Sequence record: OR594179
Length of the DNA: 44,656 nt
Direction: 5' to 3' (one strand)
From: Escherichia phage vB_EcoM_SHAK7163
Part shown: positions 6,334 through 31,616 of the stretch, in pieces
Layout: each line of letters opens with the position of its first letter
How positions within the stretch are numbered: the stretch's first letter is position 1
The notes under the pieces: model-generated
What the model was told of the DNA's origin: nothing
What the model saw: the letters and a program-made list of their open reading frames with translations, nothing else
The model's database searches: none
Position numbers and translations under genes: made by a program

Positions 6334-6349
6334 GTCTCACATGTGAGAC
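6334..6349. repeat. 16-bp perfect palindrome GTCTCACATGTGAGAC (copy 1)
   Basis: Exact palindrome 3 bp upstream of promoter at 6352. Confidence 0.9.
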
Positions 6350-6351
6350 TT

Positions 6352-6374
6352 ATTTACCGGACACTATAGGATAG
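6352..6374 (+). promoter_or_regulatory. phage RNAP promoter
   Basis: ATTTACCGGACACTATAGGATAG; matches the window-wide 23-bp consensus; +1 G predicted at 6369. Confidence 0.75.
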
Positions 6375-6516
6375 CCGTCGGAGACGGGAAAGAAAGGGAA
6401 GATAAAAGGATATAAAAGGAAGTAATAGGTATTAAAGGTTATATAGGTTATCTAGGAATACCTATTACCTTCTTCCTTCCTCTTATTACCAATTAGAGGA
6501 AGGGCAGATCTAGGTT

Positions 6517-6532
6517 GTCTCACATGTGAGAC
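6517..6532. repeat. 16-bp perfect palindrome GTCTCACATGTGAGAC (copy 2)
   Basis: Exact palindrome 6 bp upstream of promoter at 6538. Confidence 0.9.
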
Positions 6533-6537
6533 TTCGT

Positions 6538-6560
6538 ATTTACCGGACAGTATAGATAAG
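6538..6560 (+). promoter_or_regulatory. phage RNAP promoter (variant)
   Basis: ATTTACCGGACAGTATAGATAAG; one substitution in the core (CAGTATAG). Confidence 0.55.
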
Positions 6561-6585
6561 ACTAACTTACTTTGGAGATTTAACC

Positions 6586-6714
6586 ATGCGTAACTTTGAG
6601 AAGATGACCCGTAAAGCTAACCGTTTTGACATGGAAGAAGGGCAGAAGAAAGGCAAGAAGCTGAATAAACCTGTCCGTGACCGTGCATCTAAACGCGCTG
6701 CGTGGGAGTTCTAA
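6586..6714 (+). CDS. gp1.1-like small basic protein
   Basis: 42 aa MRNFEKMTRKANRF...KKLNKPVRDRASKRAAWEF resembles remembered T7 gp1.1 (MRNFEKMTKRSNRNARDFE...). Confidence 0.65.
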   Translation: MRNFEKMTRKANRFDMEEGQKKGKKLNKPVRDRASKRAAWEF

Positions 6715-6717
6715 GTT

Positions 6718-8706
6718 ATGGCTATTATTCAGAATGTACCGTGTCCTGCCTGTCAAAAGAATGGACATGATATTACTGGCAACCATCTCATGATATTTGA
6801 TGATGGTGCTGGCTACTGTAATCGTGGACACTTTCATGATAATGGTAGACCTTACTATCACAAGCCGGAAGGTGGCATCGAGATAACCGAGTTACCTATT
6901 ACTGGCAATATCAAATATACACCTTCTCAATTCAAAGAAATGGAGAAGGAAGGGAAGATAAGCGACCCTAAATTACGTGCCATCGCACTTGGTGGTATGC
7001 GTATGAAAGACCGTTGGGAGGTCATGAATGAACAAGAAAGGGCAGAGCAAGAAGCAGAGTGGAAACTTGATGTTGAATGGTTCCTCACGCTTAAGCGTAA
7101 GAACCTTGTTTCCCGACACATTCGCGGCGACATTTGCGCATTGTATGATGTACGTGTCGGACACGATGAAGAGGGTAGAGTCTCGCGGCATTACTATCCA
7201 CGCTTCGAGAAAGGCGAGCTAGTAGGTGCTAAGTGTCGCACATTACCTAAAGACTTTAAGTTTGGTCATTTAGGTAAACTCTTTGGTATGCAAGATCTTT
7301 TCGGGATGAATACTTTGTCTCACGTGTTAGACAAGGGAAGACGAAAGGATTGCTTGCTTATTGTGGGTGGGGAACTGGATGCGCTAGCAGCGCAGCAGAT
7401 GCTCCTTGATTCTGCCAAGGGTACTAAGTGGGAAGGTCAACCTTACCATGTATGGTCTGTTAACAAAGGGGAGTCTTGCCTTGAAGAGATTGTGCAGAAC
7501 CGTGAACACATCGCCCAATTCAAGAAGATTATTTGGGGCTTCGATGGGGATGAGGTAGGGCAGAAGCAGAACCAGCAAGCGGCTCGCCTGTTTCCTGGCA
7601 AATCCTATATCCTTGAGTACCCTTCTGGTTGCAAAGATGCCAACAAGGCATTGATGGCTGGCAAGGCTAAAGAGTTTGTTGATGCATGGTTTAATGCCAA
7701 GTCATCTGATGAAGTCTTTGGTAGCCAGATTAAATCTATCGCATCTCAAAGGGATAAGCTCAAGGCTGCACGTCCAGAGCAAGGACTATCATGGCCTTGG
7801 CCTAAGCTGAACAAGGTAACGCTAGGTATTCGTAAGAACCAGCTTATCATTGTAGGTGCAGGGTCTGGTGTAGGTAAGACTGAGTTCCTTCGTGAAGTAG
7901 TTAAGCACCTCATTGAAGAACACGGTGAATCTGTGGGCATCATTTCTACAGAAGACCCGATGGTCAAGGTGTCCCGTGCTTTTATCGGCAAGTGGATTGA
8001 TAAGCGTATTGAGTTACCTCCAACCAACGACCCGAAAGAAGATGGATACCGCGAGGTGTTCGACTATACCGAGGAAGAAGCTAACGCCGCCATTGATTAT
8101 GTAGCTGATACAGGTAAGCTGTTTGTAGCTGACCTAGAGGGTGACTATTCGATGGAAAAGGTAGAGCAAACTTGCCTAGAGTTTGAGGCTATGGGTATTT
8201 CTAATATCATCATTGATAACTTAACGGGGATTAAATTAGATGAGCGTGCTTTTGGTGGGAAGGTTGGTGCACTTGATGAATGCGTCAAGCGGATTGGTAC
8301 TATCAAAGACCGACACCCGGTTACTATATTCCTTGTATCACACCTTACACGTCCCCCGGCAAACCGTACCCAACACGAAGAAGGTGGCGAAGTTATCCTT
8401 TCTGACTTCCGAGGCTCAGGCGCTATCGGATTCTGGGCATCTTACGCCTTGGGGATTGAGCGTAATACAAGAGCTGAAACGCTTGATGAAAGGACTACCA
8501 CGTACATCTCGTGTGTCAAAGACCGCGATCAAGGTATCTACACTGGAACCAAGGTCATGCTTAAAGGTGACATTCAGACCGGACGTTTGATGGAACCACA
8601 AGCCCGTACTAAGTCATTTGATACAGGTGAAGCAAGGCAGCAAGAGGTGCCTGATTTACCGGACACTATAGAAGAGACAAACTTTGAAGATGAACAGGAG
8701 TTTTAA
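6718..8706 (+). CDS. DNA primase/helicase
   Basis: 662 aa; N-terminal zinc-binding CPACQ...CNRGH, helicase Walker A GAGSGVGKTEF, acidic C-terminus ending EDEQEF. Confidence 0.9.
   Translation: MAIIQNVPCPACQKNGHDITGNHLMIFDDGAGYCNRGHFHDNGRPYYHKPEGGIEITELPITGNIKYTPSQFKEMEKEGKISDPKLRAIALGGMRMKDRWEVMNEQERAEQEAEWKLDVEWFLTLKRKNLVSRHIRGDICALYDVRVGHDEEGRVSRHYYPRFEKGELVGAKCRTLPKDFKFGHLGKLFGMQDLFGMNTLSHVLDKGRRKDCLLIVGGELDALAAQQMLLDSAKGTKWEGQPYHVWSVNKGESCLEEIVQNREHIAQFKKIIWGFDGDEVGQKQNQQAARLFPGKSYILEYPSGCKDANKALMAGKAKEFVDAWFNAKSSDEVFGSQIKSIASQRDKLKAARPEQGLSWPWPKLNKVTLGIRKNQLIIVGAGSGVGKTEFLREVVKHLIEEHGESVGIISTEDPMVKVSRAFIGKWIDKRIELPPTNDPKEDGYREVFDYTEEEANAAIDYVADTGKLFVADLEGDYSMEKVEQTCLEFEAMGISNIIIDNLTGIKLDERAFGGKVGALDECVKRIGTIKDRHPVTIFLVSHLTRPPANRTQHEEGGEVILSDFRGSGAIGFWASYALGIERNTRAETLDERTTTYISCVKDRDQGIYTGTKVMLKGDIQTGRLMEPQARTKSFDTGEARQQEVPDLPDTIEETNFEDEQEF
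8654..8676 (+). promoter_or_regulatory. phage RNAP promoter embedded in 3' end of primase/helicase gene
   Basis: ATTTACCGGACACTATAGAAGAG inside coding sequence (encodes ...LPDTIEE...). Confidence 0.65.
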
Positions 8707-8867
8707 TGGAAATTATTAAACCAGTATTGAATATCGGTATTGAGATCCTATTCATGCTTGTGGTCGCAGATTATGCTGCACGATATGGATTCAAGAAAGC
8801 TGTGAAACTTATCGTTGCATCTGGTTTTATTATGTCAATGTTCTTTATTGTAACACGCCTTATCTAG
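8706..8867 (+). CDS. small membrane protein (53 aa)
   Basis: ATG overlapping helicase stop (TAATG); hydrophobic MEIIKPVLNIGIEILFMLVV...; below ORF-track cutoff. Confidence 0.35.
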   Translation: MEIIKPVLNIGIEILFMLVVADYAARYGFKKAVKLIVASGFIMSMFFIVTRLI

Positions 8868-8884
8868 TGTATTTATCAGGGCTT

Positions 8885-8900
8885 GTCTCACATGTGAGAC
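8885..8900. repeat. 16-bp perfect palindrome GTCTCACATGTGAGAC (copy 3, extended stem)
   Basis: Flanks extend complementarity (CTTGTCTCACATGTGAGACAGG), followed by CTCTTATT. Confidence 0.9.
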
Positions 8901-8939
8901 AGGCTCTTATTAAGTACATTAAATAACTGGAGATTGATT

Positions 8940-9662
8940 ATGTATAAATTAGTGTTGAATGTAGGTGACTTTGTACGAAACATCAAGAAAGATTCAAGTC
9001 GCTATCTTTGCCGTGGTGTTGTAACCTTTGTAGGTGAGAACCTGTATTATGTAGAATATCACAGTGGTGTTAAGCAATATTACCACAAAAAGACAGCACA
9101 TAAATATCTTGAAAAGATTGTAGAGGTAAACAATCAATGTAAGTGCATATATGATGAGGTTTGCGATAAGTGCAAACGTCAGGCAATTAAAGCCTTTACC
9201 TTTGCTCAACGCTATGGTTCTATGTATGGTGCTGGTCACAAGACCGTTGCAGAAGCAGCTTGGAAGACATTGCAGTTTGAGAGTTCAAATGGACGACGCA
9301 CCACACTCAAGAAAGAGCGTCGCAATGTAATCACCGGTAAGACTCAAAGTGAGATGATTAAGCAATGTGGCACTGCATTAGGTGTTACACAGTTTAATAC
9401 TCGTGCATTGGGTAAATCCACAGGACAAGCTATGGTAAAGATTGGAGAAGCCATGATGCATCCAAATGTACCTGTGCGAATCATGGATGTTGACCATGCA
9501 ATCACAGAACAAGGTACGCAACGACGTGTAATTAATAAGCATTTTGCCGACACTATAGAAGGCATTATTCGTAAGCAAGGGTTGAAAGGTCTTCACATCT
9601 TAAATGGTGAAGAATTACTGTACCTACCTATCGTTACTGAAGAAACATACGTGAATATCTAA
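8940..9662 (+). CDS. hypothetical protein (240 aa)
   Basis: First ATG after GGAG SD (track uses TTG at 8934); no recognisable motifs. Confidence 0.55.
   Translation: MYKLVLNVGDFVRNIKKDSSRYLCRGVVTFVGENLYYVEYHSGVKQYYHKKTAHKYLEKIVEVNNQCKCIYDEVCDKCKRQAIKAFTFAQRYGSMYGAGHKTVAEAAWKTLQFESSNGRRTTLKKERRNVITGKTQSEMIKQCGTALGVTQFNTRALGKSTGQAMVKIGEAMMHPNVPVRIMDVDHAITEQGTQRRVINKHFADTIEGIIRKQGLKGLHILNGEELLYLPIVTEETYVNI
9541..9563 (+). promoter_or_regulatory. possible weak phage promoter inside coding sequence
   Basis: ATTTTGCCGACACTATAGAAGGC; core GACACTATAGAAG conserved, upstream part diverged. Confidence 0.3.
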
Positions 9663-9672
9663 GGAGTTAATC

Positions 9673-9891
9673 ATGACTAAGGTATTAATTTATATGCGTG
9701 GACCTCATAAATGCTATGCAGTTGTAGCACCAGATGGTGTTAAGCCCTATGGTACTTCAAAGGGGTTTGCATTAATAGGTGCTAGTAGTAGTGCAAGTTT
9801 TCAGATGGAACTTTTCGGTCATTTGACTGAAAAAGAGTTCCGTGAGGAGTTTAATGTAATCGGCAGCTTTATGGTGAAACATGCAGAATAA
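9673..9891 (+). CDS. hypothetical protein (72 aa)
   Basis: Strong SD AAGGAG 7 nt upstream. Confidence 0.5.
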   Translation: MTKVLIYMRGPHKCYAVVAPDGVKPYGTSKGFALIGASSSASFQMELFGHLTEKEFREEFNVIGSFMVKHAE

Positions 9892-10090
9892 ACATAGTCT
9901 TAAAATGTTCGATGGTCATGAAGACCTGCAAGCCAAGATTACTAACCAAGCCTTCCTGTTCGCACAGTTAACTATGGCTGAAGCAAAGAAGAATAGCCTG
10001 ACGCGTGAACAGGTTATCAAGGAGGCAACTTGGGAGCCACACCAAGGTAAGTATATGGGGCAGAAGGTAACTGTAACACGCAGTCGATAA
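9881..10090 (+). CDS. hypothetical protein (69 aa)
   Basis: ORF overlapping previous stop by 11 nt. Confidence 0.45.
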   Translation: MQNKHSLKMFDGHEDLQAKITNQAFLFAQLTMAEAKKNSLTREQVIKEATWEPHQGKYMGQKVTVTRSR

Positions 10091-10100
10091 GTCAAGGGTT

Positions 10101-10116
10101 GTCTCACACGTGAGAC
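10101..10116. repeat. 16-bp perfect palindrome GTCTCACACGTGAGAC (copy 4, CACGTG centre)
   Basis: Extended by GGTT/AGCC flanks; followed by TTTCATCAT. Confidence 0.9.
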
Positions 10117-10147
10117 AGCCTTTCATCATATTGATTGGAGGTGCATT

Positions 10148-10255
10148 ATGCCACGTGATTATGATTCTGATTGGGATTTCCAAGATTCAATGAATCCAAA
10201 ACCAGAACGTTCAGATGATTACTACGAAACAGAGGCAATGTATGAAGACTATTAA
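10148..10255 (+). CDS. hypothetical small acidic protein (35 aa)
   Basis: Strong SD GGAGGTG then ATG; below track cutoff. Confidence 0.3.
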   Translation: MPRDYDSDWDFQDSMNPKPERSDDYYETEAMYEDY

Positions 10256-10460
10256 ATTAAGCAAGGTTTGCTCTTGCGGTAAAGGTTATCGCAGTCGTAT
10301 TGATGGTAAGTGTGGGCATTGCAGGTCTAAGAAAGAGGCTGCTTTGTTTGATAAGTACCACAATGAATTAGCATATAACTATCCTCATCTAACACCTAAT
10401 TCTTTATTAGGACTTGGTTATAGGGTTAAATACTTTGGAGCAATCTATGAAATCAATTGA
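10242..10460 (+). CDS. hypothetical zinc-ribbon-like protein (72 aa)
   Basis: ATG after AGAGG; CSCG...CGHC cysteine pairs. Confidence 0.45.
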   Translation: MKTIKLSKVCSCGKGYRSRIDGKCGHCRSKKEAALFDKYHNELAYNYPHLTPNSLLGLGYRVKYFGAIYEIN

Positions 10461-12993
10461 TTGGAAGAAGGAGGCAGAAGGTCGTATCCTCGTGATGGAT
10501 GCGGAAGCTAAAGGACTCCTTGACGCTATCCGATATGGACACCGTGAAGATGTGCATATCATTTGCTGCATGGACTTGCTTACTACCGAGGAGTTTCTCT
10601 TCTTTGACCCGTATGAGATGCGTGACCCTGAAGCAAGAGAACGCCTGAAGGAATGGGAAGGTCATCAAGATGGTGACTTGGTTGATGGTGTTAACTTCCT
10701 GAAGCACTGTGAGGCTATTGTGTCGCAGAACTTCCTAGGGTATGACGGTCTTCTCTTTGAGAAAGCATTTCCTGATATATGGAAAGGCTTTAATTACACA
10801 GAGAAGCGTGGCAAGGGCAGGCTCCGTGCCGACCTGTGTCCTGTGCGAGTCATGGACACGCTGGTGATGAGCCGCCTGTTAAACCCTGATAGACGCCTCC
10901 CTCCGCAAGCATATGCCAAAGGCATGGGTAACGTCGCCCCTCACTCAATTGAGGCGCACGGCATCCGTATAGGCCGCTATAAGCCGGAGAATGAGGATTG
11001 GTCTAAACTAACTGATCACATGGTTCACCGTGTACGTGAGGACGTGGCGATTGGTCGTGACCTGTTCCTCTGGCTCTTTAACGGGGAATGGATGGAGCAC
11101 AAACGCCGTGGAGTGAACAAACGTACTGGCCTAGGGATTGAGACAGCCTTCCACATGGAGTCCATTGTGGCGCTGGAGATGAGCCGTCAGGCAGAGCGTG
11201 GATTCCGTCTGGATATCGACAAGGCGTTAGCACGATGCGAGGAATTGGACGCTAAGATTGATGAGACAGTCGCAGCGTTCCGTCCGCACATGCCTATGCG
11301 TATCAAGTCTAAACCTTTTAAACCGGAAGAAAAGAATGAAGTATGCCAACGCGCAAATGAGTATGGAGCTAGCAACAATATACCTACTGTCCTTGACCCC
11401 TCTCACTTTCTTCACGCAGAGAGACGAGGAGATCGCAAGACAGTATGGAGTGTCACTACTAAGTCTGGTGATTGGTCGGCTAGCGTCAAGAAAGACTTTC
11501 CTCACCTTAGAGGAAACCGTAATGACACGCCAAGTATCAAGTGGATTGGCGCTTACTCGCCTGTTACTTTCGAAGAGATTCCCTTGGGTAACAGGGATAC
11601 AGTTAAGCAAGTGCTCTATGATTATGGATGGAAGGGTGTTGAATTTAATGATACCGAGCAAGCGCATCTCGATGAGTATGGAGTGTTACCCAAGCCTTGG
11701 AGTGGGAAGATAAATGAAAAGTCCCTTACTTTATGGCAAGAGAGAGCCGCACGTGAAGGTAAAACAGTCCCTGATTGGTGCTTGGGTATCGCTGCATGGT
11801 ACATACTCGTATCCCGTCGTGGTCAGATCCTCAACCGTGGTGACGTTGAAGCCTTCGACCAGAAGGGGGTGTGGCCTTCGCAAGCTGGTATACGAAAGTG
11901 TCGCGGCCTTGTACCTGTAGCATTTAACAAGGAGTTAGGAATCAATGCGCAGCAATACTACGAAAGGTACGGATGCTGGCCTACGTCAGACAAGGATGAC
12001 GGAGAATGGCGTGTGCCAGCTATTGCTATTAGTATTGGAACTTCTACGTTCCGTATGCGTCATCGTAACGTGGTTAATATTCCTGCCCGTGGTTTGTATC
12101 CTTTACGTGATTTATTCATAGCCGGTAAAGGTAAGCTAATCCTTGGTTGTGATGGTGCTGGTCTTGAACTACGTGTACTGTCTCACTTCATGAATGACCC
12201 TGAATATCAAGATATTGTACTGCATGGTGACATTCACACCCATAATCAAATGAAGGCTGGTCTTCCTAAGCGTGACATGGCGAAGACATTTATATATGCC
12301 TTCCTATATGGGTCTGGTATAGCTAACCTTGCAGCAGTATGTGGTGTTACTGAGGAAGAAATGGAGGAAGTTGTGGCAAGATTTGAGGTTGAACTACCAT
12401 CTCTTGCACGCCTTCGTGAGAATGTTATCGCACAAGGTAACAAGTTTGGCTACCTACAAGCACCTGATGGTCATTGGGGTCGCATCCGTATGTCTGGTGG
12501 TGAACTTAAAGAGCACACTATGCTTAACGTACTACTCCAGATGACTGGTTCTCTGTGTATGAAATACGCATTGGTCAGAGCGTTTGCAGTGATGCGCAAG
12601 GAAGGTGTGGCCTTAGATAGTATGGGAAACCCTTGCGGTATAGCTAACGTGCACGATGAAATCCAGATGGAAGTCCCTGAAGATGAGGTCTTGTATCTCA
12701 ACTACGACTTGCCTTTCACCTTAGAAGGGTTCGAAACAGAGAAGGCTGCTGTGAAAGCAGTGTTCGATGCAGAGGAGAAACGTGTTCATGTGGATTCTGA
12801 AGGACGTATGTGGTCTGCTGCAAATCTCGTTAGCGTTGATGCTGATGCTGGTGTACTTCATTGCCAGCGTCGTTATCACCGTGCAGGGCATATCATTGCC
12901 GATGCAATGACTTGGGCTGGTCATTATTTGAAGATGCGTTGTCCGATGGCAGGTGAGTATAAGATTGGTGCAAGCTGGAAGGAAACACACTGA
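10447..12993 (+). CDS. DNA polymerase, family A, with 3'-5' exonuclease domain
   Basis: 849 aa from ATG with GGAG SD (track ORF begins at TTG 10414); exo motif ILVMDAEAKGL; pol motifs GCDGAGLELRVLSHF, KTFIYAFLYGSG, VHDEIQMEV. Confidence 0.93.
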   Translation: MKSIDWKKEAEGRILVMDAEAKGLLDAIRYGHREDVHIICCMDLLTTEEFLFFDPYEMRDPEARERLKEWEGHQDGDLVDGVNFLKHCEAIVSQNFLGYDGLLFEKAFPDIWKGFNYTEKRGKGRLRADLCPVRVMDTLVMSRLLNPDRRLPPQAYAKGMGNVAPHSIEAHGIRIGRYKPENEDWSKLTDHMVHRVREDVAIGRDLFLWLFNGEWMEHKRRGVNKRTGLGIETAFHMESIVALEMSRQAERGFRLDIDKALARCEELDAKIDETVAAFRPHMPMRIKSKPFKPEEKNEVCQRANEYGASNNIPTVLDPSHFLHAERRGDRKTVWSVTTKSGDWSASVKKDFPHLRGNRNDTPSIKWIGAYSPVTFEEIPLGNRDTVKQVLYDYGWKGVEFNDTEQAHLDEYGVLPKPWSGKINEKSLTLWQERAAREGKTVPDWCLGIAAWYILVSRRGQILNRGDVEAFDQKGVWPSQAGIRKCRGLVPVAFNKELGINAQQYYERYGCWPTSDKDDGEWRVPAIAISIGTSTFRMRHRNVVNIPARGLYPLRDLFIAGKGKLILGCDGAGLELRVLSHFMNDPEYQDIVLHGDIHTHNQMKAGLPKRDMAKTFIYAFLYGSGIANLAAVCGVTEEEMEEVVARFEVELPSLARLRENVIAQGNKFGYLQAPDGHWGRIRMSGGELKEHTMLNVLLQMTGSLCMKYALVRAFAVMRKEGVALDSMGNPCGIANVHDEIQMEVPEDEVLYLNYDLPFTLEGFETEKAAVKAVFDAEEKRVHVDSEGRMWSAANLVSVDADAGVLHCQRRYHRAGHIIADAMTWAGHYLKMRCPMAGEYKIGASWKETH

Positions 12994-13109
12994 TGGACAG
13001 GTTTGATGTTGTTTGCCTATTCTCTATCTTCTTTCTTATATTCCTTATGCTTGCTTGCTATGGAAGTATGCGATTAGATATACCTGATGAAGAGGAGGGT
13101 TACGATTGA
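12993..13109 (+). CDS. small hydrophobic protein (38 aa)
   Basis: ATG overlapping polymerase stop (TGATG); single predicted TM segment. Confidence 0.3.
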   Translation: MDRFDVVCLFSIFFLIFLMLACYGSMRLDIPDEEEGYD

Positions 13110-13207
13110 TGCAAACTGCTTTTATCATTCTTGGGATCATATTATTTATGGTAGTATTCTGGGCTTTCTCTGGCATTGACCCAGATTGTGATGGTAACTA
13201 CGACTGA
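13109..13207 (+). CDS. small hydrophobic protein (32 aa)
   Basis: SD GAGGAGGG upstream; TM-like FIILGIILFMVVFWAF. Confidence 0.3.
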   Translation: MQTAFIILGIILFMVVFWAFSGIDPDCDGNYD

Positions 13208-13275
13208 GTTATACTCAAGGTCACTTACGAGTGGCCTTTATGAATAACTTATTCCTACTTATTTTGTCTAACATG

Positions 13276-13298
13276 ATTTACTGGACACTATAGAAGGA
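13276..13298 (+). promoter_or_regulatory. phage RNAP promoter
   Basis: ATTTACTGGACACTATAGAAGGA. Confidence 0.75.
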
Positions 13299-13362
13299 AA
13301 GCCTAGGTAATCTAGGTTTATAAGGTAGTATAGGTAATTAAGTAAATATAGGAGATATAAAT

Positions 13363-13740
13363 ATGTCTATGGTAACTACTCTGGTATTCGTGGCTCAATA
13401 CTTTCGTGGTCTTGCTAATAAGTTCAAGTCCAAGGCTATCAAAGCTATTGAGGCTCGCATCGAAGCAGTACAGGCAGAGCAAGTTAAAGTTGAAGAACAT
13501 CGTAGTTCTCAAATGATTGACTGTCATAACCGCTACTATGCATCTCGTGATGAACTAAATGCACGTCAAGTCAAAGAGGTAGAAGATATGCTGGCACGTC
13601 ACCAGCAAGAGCGTGACAGCCTGAAAGCTGAATTTGAAGAGAACAAGGCATCAATTGCTCTTGTAAATCAAGCTGCATCTGACAGCCTGAAGAAAGAGAT
13701 TGTTATGCTGGAAATAGAACTGGACAACTTGACTAAATAA
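13363..13740 (+). CDS. hypothetical protein (125 aa), predicted coiled coil
   Basis: SD TAGGAG; heptad-like charged sequence. Confidence 0.55.
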   Translation: MSMVTTLVFVAQYFRGLANKFKSKAIKAIEARIEAVQAEQVKVEEHRSSQMIDCHNRYYASRDELNARQVKEVEDMLARHQQERDSLKAEFEENKASIALVNQAASDSLKKEIVMLEIELDNLTK

Positions 13741-13746
13741 GGGGTT

Positions 13747-14046: not shown

Positions 14047-14067
14047 TTACTGGACACTATAGAACAA
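14045..14067 (+). promoter_or_regulatory. phage RNAP promoter
   Basis: AATTACTGGACACTATAGAACAA. Confidence 0.65.
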
Positions 14068-14123: not shown

Positions 14124-14930
14124 ATGGCACGTGGTGATTTTGATTTTGGTGCTCAGGTTACTAAATCTGAAGGTAAAGTCTTTAAGAATCCAGAAGTAGG
14201 TGATCATGAAGCAGTAATCTCTGGCATCATTCATGTTGGTTCCTTCCAAGACATCTTTAAGAAAGGTAATACCACTGAAGTTAAGAAGCCAGCAAACTTT
14301 GTTCTGGTTAAGATTGTCCTGATGGGTGACGATGACAAGAACGAAGATGATTCTCGCATGGAACAATGGATGGCTGTGCCTCTGAAGTCTGGTGATAAGG
14401 CAACACTGACTAAGTTCCTGAATGCAGTTGACCCTAAAGAGTTGCTGGGTGGCTTTGATGATTTTATCGGTGAATGTCTGACTGCAACTATGGTTGGCTC
14501 TGGCGACAAGAATGATGATGGTACTTTCAAGTATGTTAACTGGAAAGGCTTTGGCGGTATGCCTGATAAGTTGAAGAAGCTTGTACTGGCTCAGGTAGAA
14601 GAGGAAGGTCTGTCTATGACAGGTCATATAACCTTCGACAAGCTGACCAAAGAAATCCTTGATGACATCCCAGCTAACTTGGTACGTCAATACTTCCTGA
14701 ACGAGACACCTCGTGGTAAGAACCTGTCTGTTGCTGGCTCTCACGTAGAAGCTATTATCAAAGCTGCTCGTGAAGAAGACCCTGAATGGAAGAAGGCTAA
14801 GAAGAAAGACGAGGAAGATGCTACCCCAGCTAATCGTAAATCTCTGGATACTGGTGAGTCTGTTCCACAGGAAGTACCTGAAGCAGAAGACACTCCTGCA
14901 CCGGAGATGGATGAGGACGCGGAATATTAA
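14124..14930 (+). CDS. putative ssDNA-binding protein (gp2.5-like by position and acidic C-tail)
   Basis: 268 aa; SD TAGGAG; C-terminal tail EDTPAPEMDEDAEY is acidic with a terminal aromatic residue as in T7 gp2.5; no direct sequence match recalled. Confidence 0.5.
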   Translation: MARGDFDFGAQVTKSEGKVFKNPEVGDHEAVISGIIHVGSFQDIFKKGNTTEVKKPANFVLVKIVLMGDDDKNEDDSRMEQWMAVPLKSGDKATLTKFLNAVDPKELLGGFDDFIGECLTATMVGSGDKNDDGTFKYVNWKGFGGMPDKLKKLVLAQVEEEGLSMTGHITFDKLTKEILDDIPANLVRQYFLNETPRGKNLSVAGSHVEAIIKAAREEDPEWKKAKKKDEEDATPANRKSLDTGESVPQEVPEAEDTPAPEMDEDAEY

Positions 14931-14939
14931 GGAGAACGG

Positions 14940-15159: not shown

Positions 15160-15175
15160 GTCTCACGTGTGAGAC
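15160..15175. repeat. palindrome-family element GTCTCACGTGTGAGAC (copy 5, one mismatch)
   Basis: Single substitution relative to consensus; 15 bp upstream of promoter at 15191. Confidence 0.8.
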
Positions 15176-15190: not shown

Positions 15191-15213
15191 ATTTACTGGA
15201 CACTATAGAAGAG
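15191..15213 (+). promoter_or_regulatory. phage RNAP promoter
   Basis: ATTTACTGGACACTATAGAAGAG (exact consensus). Confidence 0.8.
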
Positions 15214-15263: not shown

Positions 15264-15635
15264 ATGTTCAAGATTGAAACTATCGTAAACCGTGTTGTTA
15301 AAGGTGCTACTCTGGTATCCGTTGAGTCTTTCATTATCGTCGATGAAGCTGATCAACTGGTAGCTGGTACTAAGGCTTACGATACCCGTGAAGAAGCTCA
15401 GGCTAAGATTGACAGCATGGGTAACTTCGCTGCTGGTCTGGAGTTCGCTCGTGCTTGCTTCCCTGAGCAGGCTGACAAAGCCCAGATCGGGAAGGCTAAC
15501 ATCGTAGCTGAATATCTGGATTGGATTGCTGCTGGTAAACCAGTGAAAGAAGTTAAAGCTGCTGAAGAAGCTGAATCTCCTGCAGTAGAAGTGTCTGCAC
15601 CGGAAGCTCCGGTTAGCGAAGAGGAAGAGTTTTGA
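15264..15635 (+). CDS. hypothetical acidic protein (123 aa) with C-terminal ...SEEEEF
   Basis: SD AAAGGAG; own promoter upstream and own terminator downstream. Confidence 0.65.
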   Translation: MFKIETIVNRVVKGATLVSVESFIIVDEADQLVAGTKAYDTREEAQAKIDSMGNFAAGLEFARACFPEQADKAQIGKANIVAEYLDWIAAGKPVKEVKAAEEAESPAVEVSAPEAPVSEEEEF

Positions 15636-23431: not shown

Positions 23432-23437
23432 TTCAGT

Positions 23438-24719: not shown

Positions 24720-24726
24720 TACCTAT

Positions 24727-24760
24727 GCCCTATCTACCTTGCGTAGGTAGGGTTATTTTT
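24727..24760 (+). terminator. hairpin + U-run terminator after capsid gene
   Basis: GCCCTATCTACC-TTGCG-TAGGTAGGG followed by TTATTTTTG; same family as the terminator at 15694. Confidence 0.7.
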
Positions 24761-24773
24761 GTTAGGAGGATTC

Positions 24774-25511
24774 ATGCCTGTAATTAGACAAACCAGTAAA
24801 GTAGGACACATGATGGAAGATGTGGCCTTCCAGATTATTGATAGTAAACTTGAAGCGGTCAACCTGTGTATGCGAGCTATTGGTCGTGAGGGTGTGGATT
24901 CTCTCGACTCAGGGGACTTGGACGCAGAAGATGCAAGCAAGATGATCGACATCGTATCCCAGCGGTTCCAGTACAACAAAGGGGGTGGCTGGTGGTTCAA
25001 TCGTGAACCAAACTGGCAGATTGCACCTGATACCAATGGTGAAGTCAATTTACCTAACAACTGCCTAGCAGTATTGCAGTGTTATGCTTTAGGTGAAAAG
25101 AAAGTACCTATGACTATGCGAGCAGGTAAGCTCTACTCTACTTGGAGTCACACCTTTGATATGCGTAAGCATGTTAATGCGAATGGTATGATTCGTCTTA
25201 CCTTACTCACCTTACTACCCTACGAGCATTTACCTACAAGTGTAATGCAGGCTATTGCCTATCAAGCTGCTGTAGAGTTTATTGTGTCTAAGGATGCAGA
25301 TCAGACTAAGCTAGCCACTGCGCAGCAGATAGCCACTCAGCTTCTTATGGATGTACAATCTGAGCAAATGTCACAGAAGCGATTAAACATGCTGGTACAT
25401 AACCCCACTCAGCGTCAGTTTGGTATCATGGCAGGTGGTTCTCAGAATGTACCTGCTTACTCTCATTCACCATATGACAGTTGGGCACTTCGTCCGTGGG
25501 AGGATCGTTAA
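24774..25511 (+). CDS. tail tubular protein A (gp11-like)
   Basis: ATG 3 nt after AGGAGGA; position and W.FNRE-type motif as T7 gp11. Confidence 0.75.
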   Translation: MPVIRQTSKVGHMMEDVAFQIIDSKLEAVNLCMRAIGREGVDSLDSGDLDAEDASKMIDIVSQRFQYNKGGGWWFNREPNWQIAPDTNGEVNLPNNCLAVLQCYALGEKKVPMTMRAGKLYSTWSHTFDMRKHVNANGMIRLTLLTLLPYEHLPTSVMQAIAYQAAVEFIVSKDADQTKLATAQQIATQLLMDVQSEQMSQKRLNMLVHNPTQRQFGIMAGGSQNVPAYSHSPYDSWALRPWEDR

Positions 25512-27913
25512 TGGAAGTACAAGGTTCATTAGGTAGACAAATCCAAGGGATTAGCCAGCAGCCGCCAGCGGTACGCTTGGATGGTCAGTGCACAGCTATG
25601 GTTAATATGATACCTGATGTAGTGAATGGTACTCAATCACGCATGGGTACAACTCATATTGCAAAGATACTTGATGCGGGGACTGATGACATGGCTACTC
25701 ATCATTATCGCAGAGGTGATGGTGATGAAGAGTATTTCTTCACGTTGAAGAAAGGACAAGTTCCTGAGATATTTGATAAGTATGGGCGCAAATGTAATGT
25801 GACTTCACAAGATGCACCTATGACCTACCTATCTGAGGTTGTTAATCCAAGGGAAGATGTGCAATTCATGACGATAGCTGATGTTACTTTTATGCTTAAC
25901 CGTAGGAAAGTGGTTAAAGTTAGTAATAGGAAGTCACCTAAAGTTGGAGATAAAGCCATTGTGTTTTGTGCATATGGTCAATACGGTACATCTTATTCTA
26001 TCATAATTGATGGAACTACAGCTGCTAGTTTTAAAACACCAGATGGGGGAAGTGCAGACCATGTTGAACAAATTCGAACTGAACGTATCACTTCTGAATT
26101 GTACTCTAAGTTGCAGCAATGGAGCGGTGTGAGTGACTATGAAATACAAAGAGACGGTACTAGTATATTTATCGAGAGACGGGATGGTGCTAACTTTACA
26201 ATAACAACCACCGATGGTGCAAAAGGTAAGGACTTAGTGGCTATCAAGAATAAGGTTAGCTCTACTGACCTACTCCCTTCTCGTGCGCCTGCTGGTTATA
26301 AAGTACAAGTGTGGCCTACTGGCAGCAAACCTGAGTCTCGTTACTGGCTGCAAGCTGAGCCTAAAGAGGGAAACCTTGTGTCTTGGAAAGAAACAATAGC
26401 TGCTGATGTATTACTTGGGTTTGATAAAGTCACAATGCCTTACATTATTGAACGTACAGGTATCATCGACGGCATAGCTCAATTCAAGATAAGACAAGGT
26501 GATTGGGAAGATCGTAAAGTAGGGGATGACTTGACTAACCCTATGCCCTCTTTTATTGATGAGGAAGTACCCCAGACAATAGGTGGAATGTTCATGGTGC
26601 AGAACCGCCTATGCTTTACAGCAGGTGAAGCGGTTATTGCTTCTCGTACATCATACTTCTTCGATTTCTTTCGTTATACGGTTATCTCTGCATTGGCAAC
26701 TGACCCATTTGATATCTTCTCAGATGCTAGTGAAGTCTACCAGCTAAAACATGCAGTGACCTTAGATGGCGCTACCGTGTTGTTTTCTGATAAGTCACAA
26801 TTCATACTGCCAGGCGATAAGCCTTTAGAGAAGTCAAATGCACTGCTTAAGCCTGTTACAACATTTGAAGTGAACAATAAAGTGAAGCCAGTAGTAACTG
26901 GTGAATCGGTAATGTTTGCCACTAACGATGGTGCTTACTCTGGTGTCCGAGAGTTCTATACAGACTCTTATAGTGACACTAAGAAGGCACAAGCAATCAC
27001 AAGTCATGTGAATAAGCTTATCGAAGGTAACATTATCAACATGGCAGCAAGTACCAATGTCAACCGATTGCTTGTCACTACTGATAAGTATCGTAACATA
27101 ATTTATTGCTATGATTGGTTATGGCAAGGTACAGACCGTGTACAATCAGCATGGCATGTATGGGAGTGGCCTATGGGTACAAAGGTGCGAGGTATGTTTT
27201 ATTCTGGTGAATTACTTTATCTACTCCTTGAGCGAGGCGATGGCGTCTATCTGGAGAAGATGGACATGGGTGATGCACTAACCTATGGTTTGAATGACCG
27301 CATCAGAATGGATAGGCAAGCAGAGTTAATCTTCAAGCATTTTAAAGCAGAAGATGAATGGATATCTGAACCACTTCCTTGGACTCCTACTAACCCAGAA
27401 CTTTTGGATTGCATCTTAATAGAAGGGTGGGATTCATATATTGGAGGTTCTTTCCTGTTCAAATATAACCCTAGTGATAACACCTTGTCTACAACCTTTG
27501 ACATGCATGATGATAACCACGTAAAAGCGAAGGTTATTGTTGGTCAGATTTACCCTCAGGAGTTTGAACCTACACCTGTAGTTATCAGAGATAGGCAAGA
27601 TCGTGTATCCTATATTGATGTACCTGTTGTGGGGTTGGTTCACCTTAATCTTGATATGTATCCTGATTTCTCTGTGGAAGTTAAGAATGTGAAGAGTGGT
27701 AAAGTACGCAGGGTGCTAGCGTCAAACCGTATAGGTGGTGCTCTCAACAACACAGTAGGTTATGTTGAACCAAGGGAGGGTGTCTTCAGATTCCCACTGA
27801 GGGCTAAGAGTACGGATGCTGTTTATCGTATTATTATAGAATCACCTCATACATTCCAGCTTCGCGATATTGAGTGGGAAGGGAGCTACAATCCAACCAA
27901 AAGGAGGGTCTAA
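25511..27913 (+). CDS. tail tubular protein B (gp12-like)
   Basis: 800 aa; N-terminal QIQGISQQPPAVRLDGQC resembles T7 gp12 N-terminus (NLKGGISQQPDILRYPDQG). Confidence 0.85.
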   Translation: MEVQGSLGRQIQGISQQPPAVRLDGQCTAMVNMIPDVVNGTQSRMGTTHIAKILDAGTDDMATHHYRRGDGDEEYFFTLKKGQVPEIFDKYGRKCNVTSQDAPMTYLSEVVNPREDVQFMTIADVTFMLNRRKVVKVSNRKSPKVGDKAIVFCAYGQYGTSYSIIIDGTTAASFKTPDGGSADHVEQIRTERITSELYSKLQQWSGVSDYEIQRDGTSIFIERRDGANFTITTTDGAKGKDLVAIKNKVSSTDLLPSRAPAGYKVQVWPTGSKPESRYWLQAEPKEGNLVSWKETIAADVLLGFDKVTMPYIIERTGIIDGIAQFKIRQGDWEDRKVGDDLTNPMPSFIDEEVPQTIGGMFMVQNRLCFTAGEAVIASRTSYFFDFFRYTVISALATDPFDIFSDASEVYQLKHAVTLDGATVLFSDKSQFILPGDKPLEKSNALLKPVTTFEVNNKVKPVVTGESVMFATNDGAYSGVREFYTDSYSDTKKAQAITSHVNKLIEGNIINMAASTNVNRLLVTTDKYRNIIYCYDWLWQGTDRVQSAWHVWEWPMGTKVRGMFYSGELLYLLLERGDGVYLEKMDMGDALTYGLNDRIRMDRQAELIFKHFKAEDEWISEPLPWTPTNPELLDCILIEGWDSYIGGSFLFKYNPSDNTLSTTFDMHDDNHVKAKVIVGQIYPQEFEPTPVVIRDRQDRVSYIDVPVVGLVHLNLDMYPDFSVEVKNVKSGKVRRVLASNRIGGALNNTVGYVEPREGVFRFPLRAKSTDAVYRIIIESPHTFQLRDIEWEGSYNPTKRRV

Positions 27914-28635
27914 TGGCTATAGGTTCAGCCGTTATGGCTGGTATGTCTTCTATTGGTAGCATGTTTGCAGGCAGTGGTGCAGCAGCCGCTGCTGGAGGTG
28001 CTGCCGCAGGTGGCGGAGGTTTGCTAGGTTCACTAGGTGGATTCCTAAGTGGCTCTACTGCTGGTTTCTCTAATGCTGGCCTTCTTGGTGCTGGCCTTCA
28101 AGGGTTAGGCTTGATTGGTGATCTATTTGGTGGAAGTGATGAAGCCAAGGCGATGAAGAAAGCACAAGAAGAGCAATGGCGGCAGCAGCTTATTGCTACA
28201 CAAGAGGCGTACAAGACAGTGGCAGACGCAGAACGTTCTGCTGCTAAACAATATCATGCAGATGCAATCAGTAATCAGGCTTCACTGCTACAGCAGCGAG
28301 CACAGGTTGCATTACTTGCTGGGGCTACTGGTACTGGTGGTAATTCTGTGTCCTCTATGCTTAATGACTTAGCAGCAGATGGCGGCAGGAACCAGAGTAC
28401 TATCATTGATAACTATGAGAATCAGAAGATTAATTTCACCAACCAGCTTAAATCTATCCAACGTGGTGGTCAGATGCAGATGCGTGAGTTTAAGAAGCCT
28501 TCTGCTATGAATACCTTGGTTAAAGGTATTCCAAGTCTGGCATCTGCCTATGTAACTGGTAGTAAGTCTGGCAAGGCATTGGGTAAAGCCTTAACTGATT
28601 CTCGCACATATTCATCTGGAACAAGGGGTATTTAA
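27913..28635 (+). CDS. internal virion protein (gp13/gp14-like), Gly/Ala-rich
   Basis: ATG overlapping upstream stop; N-terminal Gly/Ala-rich low-complexity segment; position. Confidence 0.6.
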   Translation: MAIGSAVMAGMSSIGSMFAGSGAAAAAGGAAAGGGGLLGSLGGFLSGSTAGFSNAGLLGAGLQGLGLIGDLFGGSDEAKAMKKAQEEQWRQQLIATQEAYKTVADAERSAAKQYHADAISNQASLLQQRAQVALLAGATGTGGNSVSSMLNDLAADGGRNQSTIIDNYENQKINFTNQLKSIQRGGQMQMREFKKPSAMNTLVKGIPSLASAYVTGSKSGKALGKALTDSRTYSSGTRGI

Positions 28636-31583
28636 TGGCAATTGAGCGACAAGCAATACAAGGTCTGCCACAAGTGCAGGCCACTTCTCCTAATGTCATG
28701 ACCTTTGCACCTCAACAAGTGGGAGGTGTGGAGGCTGGCGTGGCTTCTACCTCCGGTAGTAGATTTATCGAAGACCTTATTCGTGCAGCAAGCAGCGTGG
28801 CTGATGTTACCACTGGTATCCTTAATCAGAAGATTGAGGAAGATAAGGTTGTTCAAATGGAACGGGCATATAACGGATTAATGCCTTCTGAGGATGCAAC
28901 TCGTGGTGGCGCTCGTGCTAACATGCTTGTCAAAGCTCAACTGCTAGCTAATGATGAAGCAGCACGAATGAAAGACATGGCTACTCGTTTCCAAGGGACG
29001 GATGACGAGTGGACACAACTTATGGTTGACTCTCGTAATGAGATGCAGAATAAGCTGTTCCAGCAATACCCTGAGTTGCAAGGTGACAAAGATACTATGC
29101 GTATGGTCACTAATGTCTTCCAAGAACAGCAGCCTCAGATTTGGGCTACACGGACCCAGCATAAACTTGACCGTGAACAAGCAGACCGTGAGGACACCTT
29201 TGACGGGCGAGTGGCTTCTACTTGGGATTCTAATATTGACCCTGAAGCTTCTGGCTATGCTTTACAGGAACGAATCCGCGAAGGTCTTACTCAAGGGTTA
29301 CTACCTGAACAGATGTACAAGAAGTTAGTCCAGCGAGCAATTTCACTTGCACAAGGCGGTGATGTTAGCATGGCTGAAGCCCTGAAGTATGTGAAGGACG
29401 ATAAGGGTGTTTCTGTTTATGCTAAGAATCCACAGCTTATCACAGCCATCACTAGTGGTAATGCAGTTTGGGCTAGGAATAATGTAGCTGATGTAACTCG
29501 TATGTCTTTCGAAGTTAAAGAATCCTACCTTGCAGGTGATTTAACTGATGAAGAATTGTTGGAACGAGCACAGCACATTAATAATCTGACAGGTAACTCT
29601 GTCTTCTCTAATCCAGAACTAGAGGCACTGATGCGCCAACGGGCTAAGCAGAATGCAGAGCTAGGTGCAATGCAGGATATGCGACGTGAGCTTTACTCCG
29701 ATCGCCTGACTGGCTTCCAAGGTAAGACTGACAAAGAGAAGAAGGCTTACATTGATGTTATCAAACAGGATAGCCAACTTTATGCAGACCAGCAAATCAA
29801 ACAACGTGGCTTGGACCCTTACAGTCAAGAGGCTGAAGCTATTCGTGGTGCAGTGGAAGTGCAGCGCCTGCAATTCATGAACTCCAAAGGCTTAGTGGAT
29901 GATACCTTTGAGTCTCGTATCAAAGCCATGGAATCTATGCTATCGCCTGAGCACTTTGCCAAGGGCGAACCACAGGAGTTGATGACTATTCGCCAGTTGT
30001 GGGAACAGTTACCAGAAGAGAGCCGAGGTGTCTTTGGTGACACGGTGAATGGCTATATGGATAACTACAACACTGCACTACAAATGGGAGAGACACCTTT
30101 GCAGGCTGCAAGGTTTGCGCGTGAAGCACAGCAGAAATTCTCTCGTACTGAGAAGGAAACCAAGAAGTTCAACTCAGCTATTGGAGATGCACTGGATGAG
30201 GTATCTGGTGCTGGCTGGTTTGATGGTAAAACCGAAGTGTCAGACTTAGGTAAAGCTATTGCGGAAGAAGAGTTACGAGCTAAGGCCAATATGTTGTGGT
30301 CTAGTGGTATGCGTAACATGGACTCCATCAAGAAGGCTTTAATTACTTGGGGCAATAAACGCTACACTCAATCAGAGGATGCAAAGACTTCCGGTGGCTA
30401 TTTCATTAAAGGTGATTACACTTCTGCATCTGATATGCTTATGTCAGTTGGGAAAGGCGTAAACCCTACCGATGTACCTCTGGCGCTTGGTAGATATGTA
30501 GAAACACAGATGCCAGAATTGAAGAAGGAGCTTCAAGAGTGGGAAACTAAAGATGATATATACATTGATTACAATGAACAGAAAGGAACTTTTGTGATTC
30601 GTGCTGGTGCAGCAGGTCGCCCTCTTTCTGGAGTAATCCCTGTAACCTCTTTAGATACTACTTCACTACTAGATTCTGCCTATCAGAAGAAAGTAGAGGA
30701 ACGAGATAAAGGCGAGTATGTTCACCCGTATCGTACAGATATTGGTGCACAAGAGTCTATGCCAGCTAAACCAACTGCCAAAGATATTGGTAAATTTGGA
30801 CTAGCTAACTTCCTCATGTCTTCTGCTTTTGCTTCTGGTGAGAATCTGCCTTCTAACTTCGAGATTAACTATCGAGGTAATATGCAACAATTCTATGACA
30901 AGCTAGCTATGGATGAGAATAAAGATAAAGTTGGCTTTAATAAGGCAACTGGAACCTTTACTCCATATAAAGACGCTCACGGTGAGTCTATCGGTTACGG
31001 TCATTTCTTAACGGAAGAAGAGAAGCGAAACGGGTATATTAAGATTGGCGATGAACTAGTTCCCTATCGAGGGTCTATGTCTCAGCTTACAGAGAGCAAG
31101 GCTCGCGCTCTTATGGAGCAAGATGCTAAGAAGCATGTGCCTCCTACTCGTGACTGGAAGATTCCGTTTGACCAGATGCATCCTGCACAGCAACGTGGCT
31201 TGATGGATTTAACCTACAATTTAGGTAAAGGTGGAATCCAGAACTCACCGCGTGCTCTTGCTGCATTCAAAGCTGGTAAGCTTACGGAAGGCTTTATCGA
31301 AATGCTGGGCACTGCATCAAGTGAAGGTAAGCGTATTCCTGGCCTATTGAAGCGACGCGCTGAGGCATACAATATGGCATCTGCTGGTGGTGTGCCTAAG
31401 ATTACCGAAGTGGAGACTCGTGAAGATGGCTCCATGTGGGTTAGGTTTGGTGGACCTATGCCAGCAGGTTCTGTCTCGGCATGGACTCATAAACGTATTG
31501 GCGAGGATGGTTGGTATCAGGTTTATGAGGCTGCACCTACCAAGTTAGCTAAAGGTTCTAAGGTAGGTAAAGTTAAGTTGTAG
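28635..31583 (+). CDS. internal virion (ejection) protein with C-terminal lysozyme-like muralytic domain
   Basis: 982 aa; C-terminal region GESIGYGHFLTEEE...LMDLTYNLGKGG...GLLKRRAEAY resembles T4-lysozyme-type motifs (TIGIGHLLTK, ALINMVFQMGETG). Confidence 0.8.
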   Translation: MAIERQAIQGLPQVQATSPNVMTFAPQQVGGVEAGVASTSGSRFIEDLIRAASSVADVTTGILNQKIEEDKVVQMERAYNGLMPSEDATRGGARANMLVKAQLLANDEAARMKDMATRFQGTDDEWTQLMVDSRNEMQNKLFQQYPELQGDKDTMRMVTNVFQEQQPQIWATRTQHKLDREQADREDTFDGRVASTWDSNIDPEASGYALQERIREGLTQGLLPEQMYKKLVQRAISLAQGGDVSMAEALKYVKDDKGVSVYAKNPQLITAITSGNAVWARNNVADVTRMSFEVKESYLAGDLTDEELLERAQHINNLTGNSVFSNPELEALMRQRAKQNAELGAMQDMRRELYSDRLTGFQGKTDKEKKAYIDVIKQDSQLYADQQIKQRGLDPYSQEAEAIRGAVEVQRLQFMNSKGLVDDTFESRIKAMESMLSPEHFAKGEPQELMTIRQLWEQLPEESRGVFGDTVNGYMDNYNTALQMGETPLQAARFAREAQQKFSRTEKETKKFNSAIGDALDEVSGAGWFDGKTEVSDLGKAIAEEELRAKANMLWSSGMRNMDSIKKALITWGNKRYTQSEDAKTSGGYFIKGDYTSASDMLMSVGKGVNPTDVPLALGRYVETQMPELKKELQEWETKDDIYIDYNEQKGTFVIRAGAAGRPLSGVIPVTSLDTTSLLDSAYQKKVEERDKGEYVHPYRTDIGAQESMPAKPTAKDIGKFGLANFLMSSAFASGENLPSNFEINYRGNMQQFYDKLAMDENKDKVGFNKATGTFTPYKDAHGESIGYGHFLTEEEKRNGYIKIGDELVPYRGSMSQLTESKARALMEQDAKKHVPPTRDWKIPFDQMHPAQQRGLMDLTYNLGKGGIQNSPRALAAFKAGKLTEGFIEMLGTASSEGKRIPGLLKRRAEAYNMASAGGVPKITEVETREDGSMWVRFGGPMPAGSVSAWTHKRIGEDGWYQVYEAAPTKLAKGSKVGKVKL

Positions 31584-31600
31584 TACCTAACTCAAGGCTT

Positions 31601-31616
31601 GTCTCACATGTGAGAC
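31601..31616. repeat. 16-bp perfect palindrome GTCTCACATGTGAGAC (copy 6, extended stem)
   Basis: GCTTGTCTCACATGTGAGACAGGTC then CTTTATG; lies between two internal virion protein genes. Confidence 0.9.

Follow-up and report, generated by a model that had tools for sequence, protein, structure and literature searches.

A 16-bp palindrome recurs eight times in a Vectrevirus genome

What reads a 16-bp palindrome that a strictly lytic phage carries in several copies along its genome? The sequence in question, GTCTCACATGTGAGAC (hereafter PAL), lies scattered through the 44,656-nt stretch of Escherichia phage vB_EcoM_SHAK7163 (record OR594179) that was analysed here as a whole and that we call the window. 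The window is essentially the complete genome of a Vectrevirus (K1E/K1-5-like; Autographiviridae, Molineuxvirinae): its gene order is that of K1-5, all of its genes lie on the + strand, and a 10.5-kb test stretch was 95-97% identical to K1E, vB_EcoP_C and K1-5. SP6, K1E and K1-5 are classic phages, known as the source of SP6 RNA polymerase and as models of capsule-specific therapy; about half of their genes are without known function and, to our knowledge, no DNA-binding regulator is known in this group. An original prediction, made from the letters of the window, had taken the palindrome for either the site of a dimeric DNA-binding protein or an RNA processing or termination hairpin. Our analysis indicates that PAL is probably a double-stranded DNA (dsDNA) operator for a dimer of the early protein gp6, overlaid at three sites on RNase III-type hairpins.

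A scan of the window found exact copies of PAL at 6334, 6517, 8885 and 31601, copies with one mismatch at 250 (GTCTCACATGTTAGAC), 10101 (central CACG) and 15160 (central CGTG), and one copy with two mismatches at 7317 (GTCTCACGTGTTAGAC). The original prediction had placed the four exact copies, the variant centre at 10101 and the single mismatch at 15160 correctly; its degenerate seventh copy at 250 departs from PAL at one base, and the eighth, at 7317 within the primase/helicase open reading frame (ORF), had been missed. The total of eight copies at up to three mismatches compares with 0.26 +/- 0.50 expected, and none of 100 shuffled sequences reached eight, in agreement with the claim of a recurrence far above chance.

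The leftmost copy (250-265; half-sites GTCTCAC and GTCTAAC) stands upstream of sigma70-like early promoters at 289-318 and 333-361. The early region ends at an intrinsic terminator 3′ of the RNA polymerase gene (6269-6292, + strand), whose counterpart is annotated as a terminator in the relative KAW1A4500 and which lies 42 nt upstream of the exact copy A1 (6334-6349). Three of the 12 phage promoters of the window (ATTTACYGGACACTATAG) begin 2, 5 and 15 bp past a PAL, and they are those that the original prediction had named: 6352-6369 behind A1, 6538-6555 behind the exact copy A2 (6517-6532) and 15191-15208 behind A3 (15160-15175), which abuts the stop codon of gene 17. The copy in the primase/helicase ORF spans 7317-7332, and the remaining three lie 3′ of genes 9.5, 11 and 35.

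The sites are orthologous in related phages and change in step

Whole genomes of K1-5, SP6, the Klebsiella phages K44PH129C1 (K44) and F5M1D, the Pseudomonas phage Achelous and T7 were scanned for the palindrome. PAL is absent from T7. SP6 and K44 each carry eight of the eight orthologous sites and F5M1D five. Copy numbers per genome are eight in the window, 8-9 in SP6, K44 and F5M1D, and 11 in Achelous. Orthologous placements are found before the early sigma70-like promoters (K1-5 559, SP6 493 and K44 9067, the last 12 bp ahead of TTGACA), twice after the RNA polymerase gene, in the primase gene, and after gene 9/9.5, gene 11, gene 17 and gene 35; site A1 is syntenic in SP6, K44, F5M1D, Achelous and the locus L186. 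A link of the left-end copy to the terminal repeat was rejected: in K1-5, whose terminal repeat we take to be 234 bp, this PAL lies about 325 bp inside the repeat boundary.

Ten bases of the palindrome (G1 T2 C3 A6 C7 G10 T11 G14 A15 C16) were invariant in 390 of 390 pairwise comparisons, with 16-nt flanks that were 60% identical, and the central two bases were purine-pyrimidine throughout (AT, GC, AC, GT). Positions 4/5 and 12/13 vary between genomes, and they do so in step across all the sites of a genome: the Vectrevirus type is GTCTCAC..GTGAGAC, that of the Klebsiella phages GTCCAAC..GTTGGAC and that of SP6 GTCTAAC..GTTGGAC. Such a change of all dispersed copies together suggests a reader that acts in trans and coevolves with the sites.

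No description of PAL was found in the searchable literature. A full-text search of the open-access literature with seven versions of the palindrome found none of them, the searchable literature on K1-5/SP6/K1E palindromes, RNase III sites and Molineuxvirinae DNA-binding proteins held nothing relevant, and the GenBank records of K1E, K1-5, SP6 (two records) and KAW1A4500 carry no annotation at the PAL sites. The statement that this is not a described element thus met no contrary evidence in the open-access papers and GenBank records examined.

The core behaves as two half-sites on double-stranded DNA

To which nucleic acid does the conserved core belong? When 1.76 Mb of related DNA was searched with the pattern GTC..AC..GT..GAC, only three half-sites were found, GTCCAAC, GTCTAAC and GTCTCAC. 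They are mixed within single sites, and some of the mixtures could not pair on the sense strand, with C.A oppositions in 7 contexts and A.G or C.T in 19. Such unpairable mixes occur at the left end, before promoters (A1) and inside ORFs, and never at the three RNase III-type hairpins described below.

The copy inside the primase gene is informative in the same way. SP6 and the Klebsiella phages encode S-N-V-L-D over GTCCAAC..GTTGGAC, and the window encodes S-H-V-L-D, Vectrevirus having changed AAC to CAC (Asn to His) and TTG to TTA. Both changes approach the genome's own half-site, the first at the expense of a potential RNA pair; a G at position 12 is barred, as it would make a TGA stop codon. 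Other lineages have a PAL conserved at a fixed place in the RNA polymerase gene, and it encodes differing peptides where the spacing of the half-sites differs. Taken together, the mixed half-sites and the changes at coding sites argue for a symmetric dimer that reads dsDNA and not for a purely structural RNA, and the 16-bp core is best read, from its sequence, as dsDNA to which a dimer binds, its two half-sites being independent.

The copies within the RNA polymerase gene lie at 5246 in Achelous, 5754 in L192 and 4636 in L194, and others are present in L098, L114 and L055. At the corresponding place in the window (5035-5109; …CGCACCGCTAACGTGATGGATAG…, R-T-A-N-V-M-D) the PAL has decayed.

gp6 is the candidate reader

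gp6 (307 amino acids; 2647-3570, + strand, with a possible upstream ATG at 2599) is the product of an early gene immediately upstream of the RNA polymerase gene. It had no Pfam or PADLOC match and falls in a PHROG family without known function. Homologues are present in SP6, K44, F5M1D, Achelous and the distant contig L008/L202, and none was found in T7. An AlphaFold2 model built on a 20-sequence alignment was confident at residues 10-125 and 250-307 (a single-sequence model, with a predicted local distance difference test score of 54, was set aside). From its N terminus, gp6 is predicted to have a helix-turn-helix domain like that of ParB/KorB (residues ~10-125), then an acidic linker that is disordered, a coiled coil at ~206-244 and, at the C terminus, a J-like domain. 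The predicted helix-turn-helix itself (QKDFLAYVESEFGIKKAQCYKLMSVARVF), which in the predicted structure is of the ParB/KorB fold, is encoded at 2782-2868 on the + strand, with the codon of Lys66 at 2842-2844.

The N-terminal half of gp6 had no Pfam match at E<=1 and no ParB/Srx (CTP-binding) domain, and its model is all-helical from residue 2; the J-like domain has no HPD motif. No ParA-like ORF was seen among the window proteins scanned, ParA being found only in an unrelated contig, L026. Given the missing ParB/Srx domain, gp6 is not a canonical ParB; judged by its model, it shares folds with the ParB/KorB and J-domain families and belongs to neither.

Two distant genomes extend the association between such a protein and the palindrome. 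Achelous, whose RNA polymerase is 42% identical, has a gp6 homologue with Lys66 and 11 copies of GTCTCACANTGTGAGAC, which is the same half-site placed one base further apart, in the same kinds of locations. The other is L026 (964-3019 of IMGVR_UViG_2784746770_000001), a GC-rich contig of 129 kb that holds three exact copies of GTCTCACATGTGAGAC, each within a perfect palindrome of 22-44 bp. The copies flank parA together with an ORF that aligns to gp6 in its helix-turn-helix region (33% over 51 amino acids, E 4e-4), so that the locus looks like a partition cassette using the same site. As for other readers, gp10 was set aside because no homologue of it was found in Achelous or in the sampled loci of distant PAL-bearing phages.

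A single residue of gp6 tracks the half-site

Across 37 loci with gp6 homologues, the type of half-site follows residue 66, the residue after the conserved Tyr in F-G-I-K-K-A-Q-x-Y-X-L-M. Lys66 goes with GTCTCAC in six lineages (Vectrevirus, L191/192, the Achelous group, L194, L195/197 and L202) and Asn66 with GTCCAAC in five (the K44 group, L185, L187, the F5M1D group and L186), while His66 accompanies GTCYAAC in SP6 and Arg66 accompanies GTCTACA in L201. The rule is valid at half-site spacings of both 2 and 3 bp. In a tree of the RNA polymerases, Vectrevirus (Lys66, TC) is nested within the Asn66/CA clade, which implies at least four concordant changes.

Three proteins were then searched for alignment columns in which 12 TC genomes and 6 CA genomes are perfectly separated. 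Residue 66 was the only one among 218 columns of gp6, and there were none among 837 columns of the RNA polymerase and none among 633 of the primase-helicase. The phage RNA polymerase was rejected as the reader on this ground and because the F5M1D promoter is very different while its PAL is that of K44. The primase was likewise rejected, no primase-helicase column partitioning with the PAL type; the SP6 primase recognises GCA, a sequence that PAL lacks. In ParB and Noc, a few interface residues have been shown experimentally to set DNA specificity (PMC7383237).

Three copies sit at the tips of extended hairpins

Downstream of three genes the palindrome is part of a larger structure of 55 nt on the + strand: 3′ of gene 9.5 (8866-8920, with PAL 8885-8900 at the tip; -27.4 kcal/mol, z-score -7.1), 3′ of gene 11 (10082-10136, PAL 10101-10116; z -5.7) and 3′ of gene 35 (31582-31636, PAL 31601-31616; z -5.1). 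Each hairpin has a 13-bp upper stem tipped by PAL, an asymmetric internal loop of 2/3 nt and a lower stem of 8-10 bp, and not the simple stem of about 11 bp first described. Their flanks match the consensus CUCAAGG...CCUUUAUGAU of the T7 sites R0.3, R0.5, R1.1, R4.7 and R18.5. The hairpin at 31601, AACUCAAGGCUU[PAL]AGGUCUUUAUGAUAGG, is nearly the T7 R-site consensus; for comparison, T7 R1.1 reads AACUCAAGGUC...GGCCUUUAUGAUUG, and R0.3, R0.5, R4.7 and R18.5 are alike. An alignment of 28 distinct homologous hairpins has 94.4% of its cells paired, a share that falls to ~40% once the partners are slid, and 11 of 23 pairs have changed on both sides, with several G.U pairs conserved; the covariation score was matched by none of 500 shuffles. 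A search of the entire window at the Rfam gathering score returned no match.

The original prediction had also considered these hairpins as terminators, pointing to a T-rich tail. That tail, a part of the RNase III-site consensus CCUUUAUGAU, is no terminator U-tract: the sequences 3′ of the extended hairpins are UAUUAAG, CAUCAU and AUGAUAGG. Termination is rejected, since no U-tract follows the stem and since genes 10, 12-13 and 36-40, lacking promoters of their own, depend on read-through. A terminator pattern scan placed the copies at 6334 and 6517 in its weakest class only (6 pairs, 3 GC). The flanking consensus and the covariation make it most likely that the three extended hairpins are RNase III-type processing sites on the + strand RNA. 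Of the alternatives first offered, a dimer-binding DNA site therefore appears to suit the core and RNA processing the three copies downstream of genes, whereas the terminator falls away.

Could RNA account for every copy? On such an account, each PAL would be a small hairpin (6-bp stem, CRYG loop) for RNase III or an RNA-binding factor, serving as a processing or 3′-end stabilising signal, and gp6 would be uninvolved. Three copies do lie in covarying hairpins rich in G.U pairs, the changes of PAL type keep the pairing (T-A/C-G to C-G/A-T), T4.G13 of SP6 pairs on the sense strand only, and distant relatives have their PAL in 3′ untranslated regions near terminators or just before ribosome-binding sites. 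However, at the five other copies folding is no stronger than in shuffled sequence (z -1.0 to +0.4; coding copy -2.2), and every sigma70-like early promoter found lies downstream of the left-end copy. Conservation extends to sites with C.A, A.G or C.T mismatches, which occur at the left end, at A1 and within ORFs, and the Vectrevirus primase-gene change goes against pairing. Just three half-sites occur, though many others would pair equally, and a structural role alone would permit the drift that is seen in the flanking stems. Finally, the covariation with Lys66 and Asn66 would need a coincidence. We regard an account by RNA alone as unlikely, and it is nevertheless the strongest competitor of the gp6 operator.

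PAL also occurs in lambdoid prophages

Outside phages of this kind, PAL was found in a cassette of lambdoid prophages with the order T7-like promoter, PAL of the GTCCAAC form, SP6/K1E-like promoter, strong ribosome-binding site and hydrophobic ORF of 32-40 amino acids. One version is present once each in 535 of 5,426 complete E. coli genomes (~10%), between HNH/terminase genes and iss/bor. In the example at 12001-12262 of L165, a lambdoid prophage of the E. coli M217 chromosome, the T7-like promoter is AATACAACTCACTAATGGAGAGG and the K1E-type promoter ATTTACTGGACACTATAGAAGGA, 25 nt of which are identical to window positions 13274-13298; the promoters are followed by TAAGGAGGT and by a 40-amino-acid hydrophobic ORF (MFHSTNHQAVIMAASACATDLFRFTLSLIHFYLTGSPLSF) upstream of iss/bor. 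The cassette was also found in L053, L058, L059, L082, L088, L112, L056 and L132. Other versions carry SP6-, F5M1D- or T3-like promoters, and the PAL arms stay perfect. No gp6 homologue is encoded at the cassette loci, the cassette had no PADLOC match, and no description of T7-promoter traps appeared in the searchable literature. As a hypothesis, we propose that the cassette is a sensor or trap expressed only upon infection by a phage with a single-subunit RNA polymerase.

In L059, L081, L088, L112 and L127 (cassette family P2), a second 16-bp palindrome, GTCTC(C/T)TATAAGAGAC, lies ~15 nt upstream of the first, T7-like promoter. It has the outer arms of PAL (GTCTC...GAGAC) and another centre.

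The presence of PAL in cassettes without a gp6 homologue, and in phages of E. coli, Salmonella and Klebsiella, would suit an enterobacterial DNA-binding protein that phages and prophages exploit. But the sites change in concert between close phages whose hosts share conserved regulators, the half-site occurs with another spacing in Pseudomonas, Aeromonas and Vibrio-type phages that have gp6 homologues, and the half-site follows a residue of a phage protein. We also know of no E. coli operator that matches PAL, the half-sites of SlmA, CRP, LacI, RutR, PuuR and matS (MatP) being arranged differently. A host reader is accordingly improbable. Least credible is a recombination linker or selfish short repeat that moves between intergenic regions and phages with no function in gene expression. 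In its favour, identical PALs occur in prophages, in an unrelated contig of 129 kb and in phages whose proteins are only ~40% identical, they lie at module boundaries, and K1-5 has one site of the wrong type. Against it, strict orthology of the eight positions has persisted over long divergence, ten bases are 100% conserved, copies are kept in two essential genes at an amino-acid cost, and all copies switch type with one protein residue.

A proposed role for gp6 at the palindromes

How would gp6 and the palindromes work together? A gp6 dimer would bind PAL, in which a central R-Y step separates two half-sites of 7 bp (GTC-Y-M-AC), with residue 66 of the recognition helix reading half-site positions 4-5 (Lys reading TC, Asn CA and His YA). 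The eight PALs mark the boundaries of transcription units, namely the early host promoters, the early terminator, three phage promoters and three intercistronic processing sites; at these last three, PAL is also transcribed and tips the 55-nt hairpins, which most likely direct mRNA cutting and leave a protective 3′ hairpin. In several lineages a PAL precedes the -35 box of the first early promoter by 8-25 bp, and in distant relatives PALs lie directly after the capsid gene, in 3′ untranslated regions by terminators or before ribosome-binding sites. This boundary layout is most like that of a KorB-like global regulator or insulator. Our best guess is that gp6 acts as such a regulator or insulator genome-wide, including control of the early promoters; being an early protein, it might shut off early transcription by the host polymerase. 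DNA organisation, or the recruitment of a chaperone through the J-like domain, would be alternative roles.

Several observations weigh against the gp6 operator. We infer the binding of gp6 to PAL from covariation and a predicted fold; sequence profile searches of gp6 against the ParB/KorB families, in Pfam and the PDB, were empty, and the Foldseek matches to ParB/KorB and J-type folds had weak E-values of 0.6-7. The partition scan took in three proteins, and another protein could also covary. In K1-5 (L040), a genome with Lys66, the hairpin tip after gene 11 (9570-9585) is GTCCAACGTGTTGGAC, of the GTCCAAC type, the other K1-5 sites being GTCTCAC; this tip reflects either tolerated cross-recognition or recent recombination. 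The prophage cassette in turn pairs a K1E-type promoter with a GTCCAAC PAL, and both cases suggest that specificity is not absolute or that there is another partner. On the sense strand, G.U contexts number 15 against 7 for C.A, about twice as frequent, so that the core may have an RNA role as well. The distance from PAL to the phage promoter ranges from 0 to 15 bp with no fixed phasing, a variation that speaks against simple occlusion and against an activator making fixed contacts. Lastly, the coincidence of PAL with three hairpin tips is explained only by convenience, a palindrome being suited to a tip.

Broader still is the reading in which gp6 at 8-11 palindromes forms an operator network of the SP6 supergroup, with one residue setting the specificity, and in which lambdoid prophages have copied PAL together with the promoters as an infection sensor or trap before a hydrophobic peptide of ~40 amino acids. 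This combined picture is tentative, and we would rather doubt than assert it as a whole.

Other features of the genome

The segment between the early terminator and the first PAL (6293-6333; …TTACCTactacctgtaacatttCATTAAcataaagt) is conserved in SP6 and K44, and it could be a weak sigma70 promoter whose start falls on PAL. In the small-terminase region, 36212-36229 is an 18-nt exact match to the phage promoter core that the 3-mismatch promoter search did not list, and it may be a thirteenth promoter.

Near the right end, 43943-44242 and 44253-44552 form a perfect 300-nt direct repeat with a spacing of 310 nt, and the window starts at about nt 313 of K1-5. The OR594179 record is probably a permuted assembly that holds the terminal-repeat region twice in tandem, which would put the physical left end near 44253.

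Three gene products drew attention in passing. gp16 (14124-14930) and gp18 (15264-15635) both end in an acidic tail whose last residue is aromatic (…EMDEDAEY and …SEEEEF), a type of tail likewise present on the T7 gp2.5 single-strand DNA-binding protein and other T7 DNA polymerase partners; gp16 may be an unannotated single-strand DNA-binding protein. gp10 (8940-9662, 240 amino acids) is fast-evolving and has a CxC...CxxC cluster, with 39-52% identity to relatives where the neighbouring genes reach 80-90%.

Comparison with known systems

These results are best explained by a new pair of protein and operator, structurally of the ParB/KorB kind, in lytic phages of the SP6 supergroup. If true, a gp6-PAL pair that extends from E. 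coli phages to those of Pseudomonas, Aeromonas and Vibrio would be a new layer of control in T7-type phages, and the predicted Lys-TC/Asn-CA rule would offer an orthogonal set of small operator/repressor parts. With a PAL between phage-polymerase promoters in ~10% of complete E. coli genomes, a prophage defence that detects the transcription machinery of an invading phage becomes a possibility; such a defence, if real, would bear on host range in phage therapy.

Like the ParB and KorB systems, this one has several copies of one 13-16-bp palindrome per replicon. The nearest comparison is KorB with its operator OB in the IncP plasmid RK2, a member of the ParB family. No similarity between the gp6 and KorB sequences was detectable; gp6 is without the ParB/Srx CTPase domain at its N terminus and, in this genome, without a ParA/IncC partner. 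Unlike KorB, it carries a J-like C-terminal domain and sits in a strictly lytic phage of the T7 supergroup. Without a CTPase domain, sliding or spreading along DNA is not expected of gp6. The half-sites of PAL are 2 or 3 bp further apart than those of parS, which sets it apart from ParB-parS and Noc-NBS, and the window has no partition ATPase, whereas L026 has parA beside a PAL-flanked gene with a gp6-like helix-turn-helix.

REP and BIME elements are also short repeated palindromes between genes. PAL, however, is much shorter and invariant, occurs in ORFs and in non-transcribed DNA as well, covaries with a phage helix-turn-helix protein, and is not accompanied by a RAYT-like transposase. At the RNA level the likeness is to the R sites of T7, with which the three hairpins share a lower stem, an asymmetric internal loop, an upper stem, the CUCAAGG...CCUUUAUGAU flanks and an intercistronic position. 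The tips of the T7 R sites each differ, whereas here all the tips are one 16-nt palindrome, which also stands alone at five sites.

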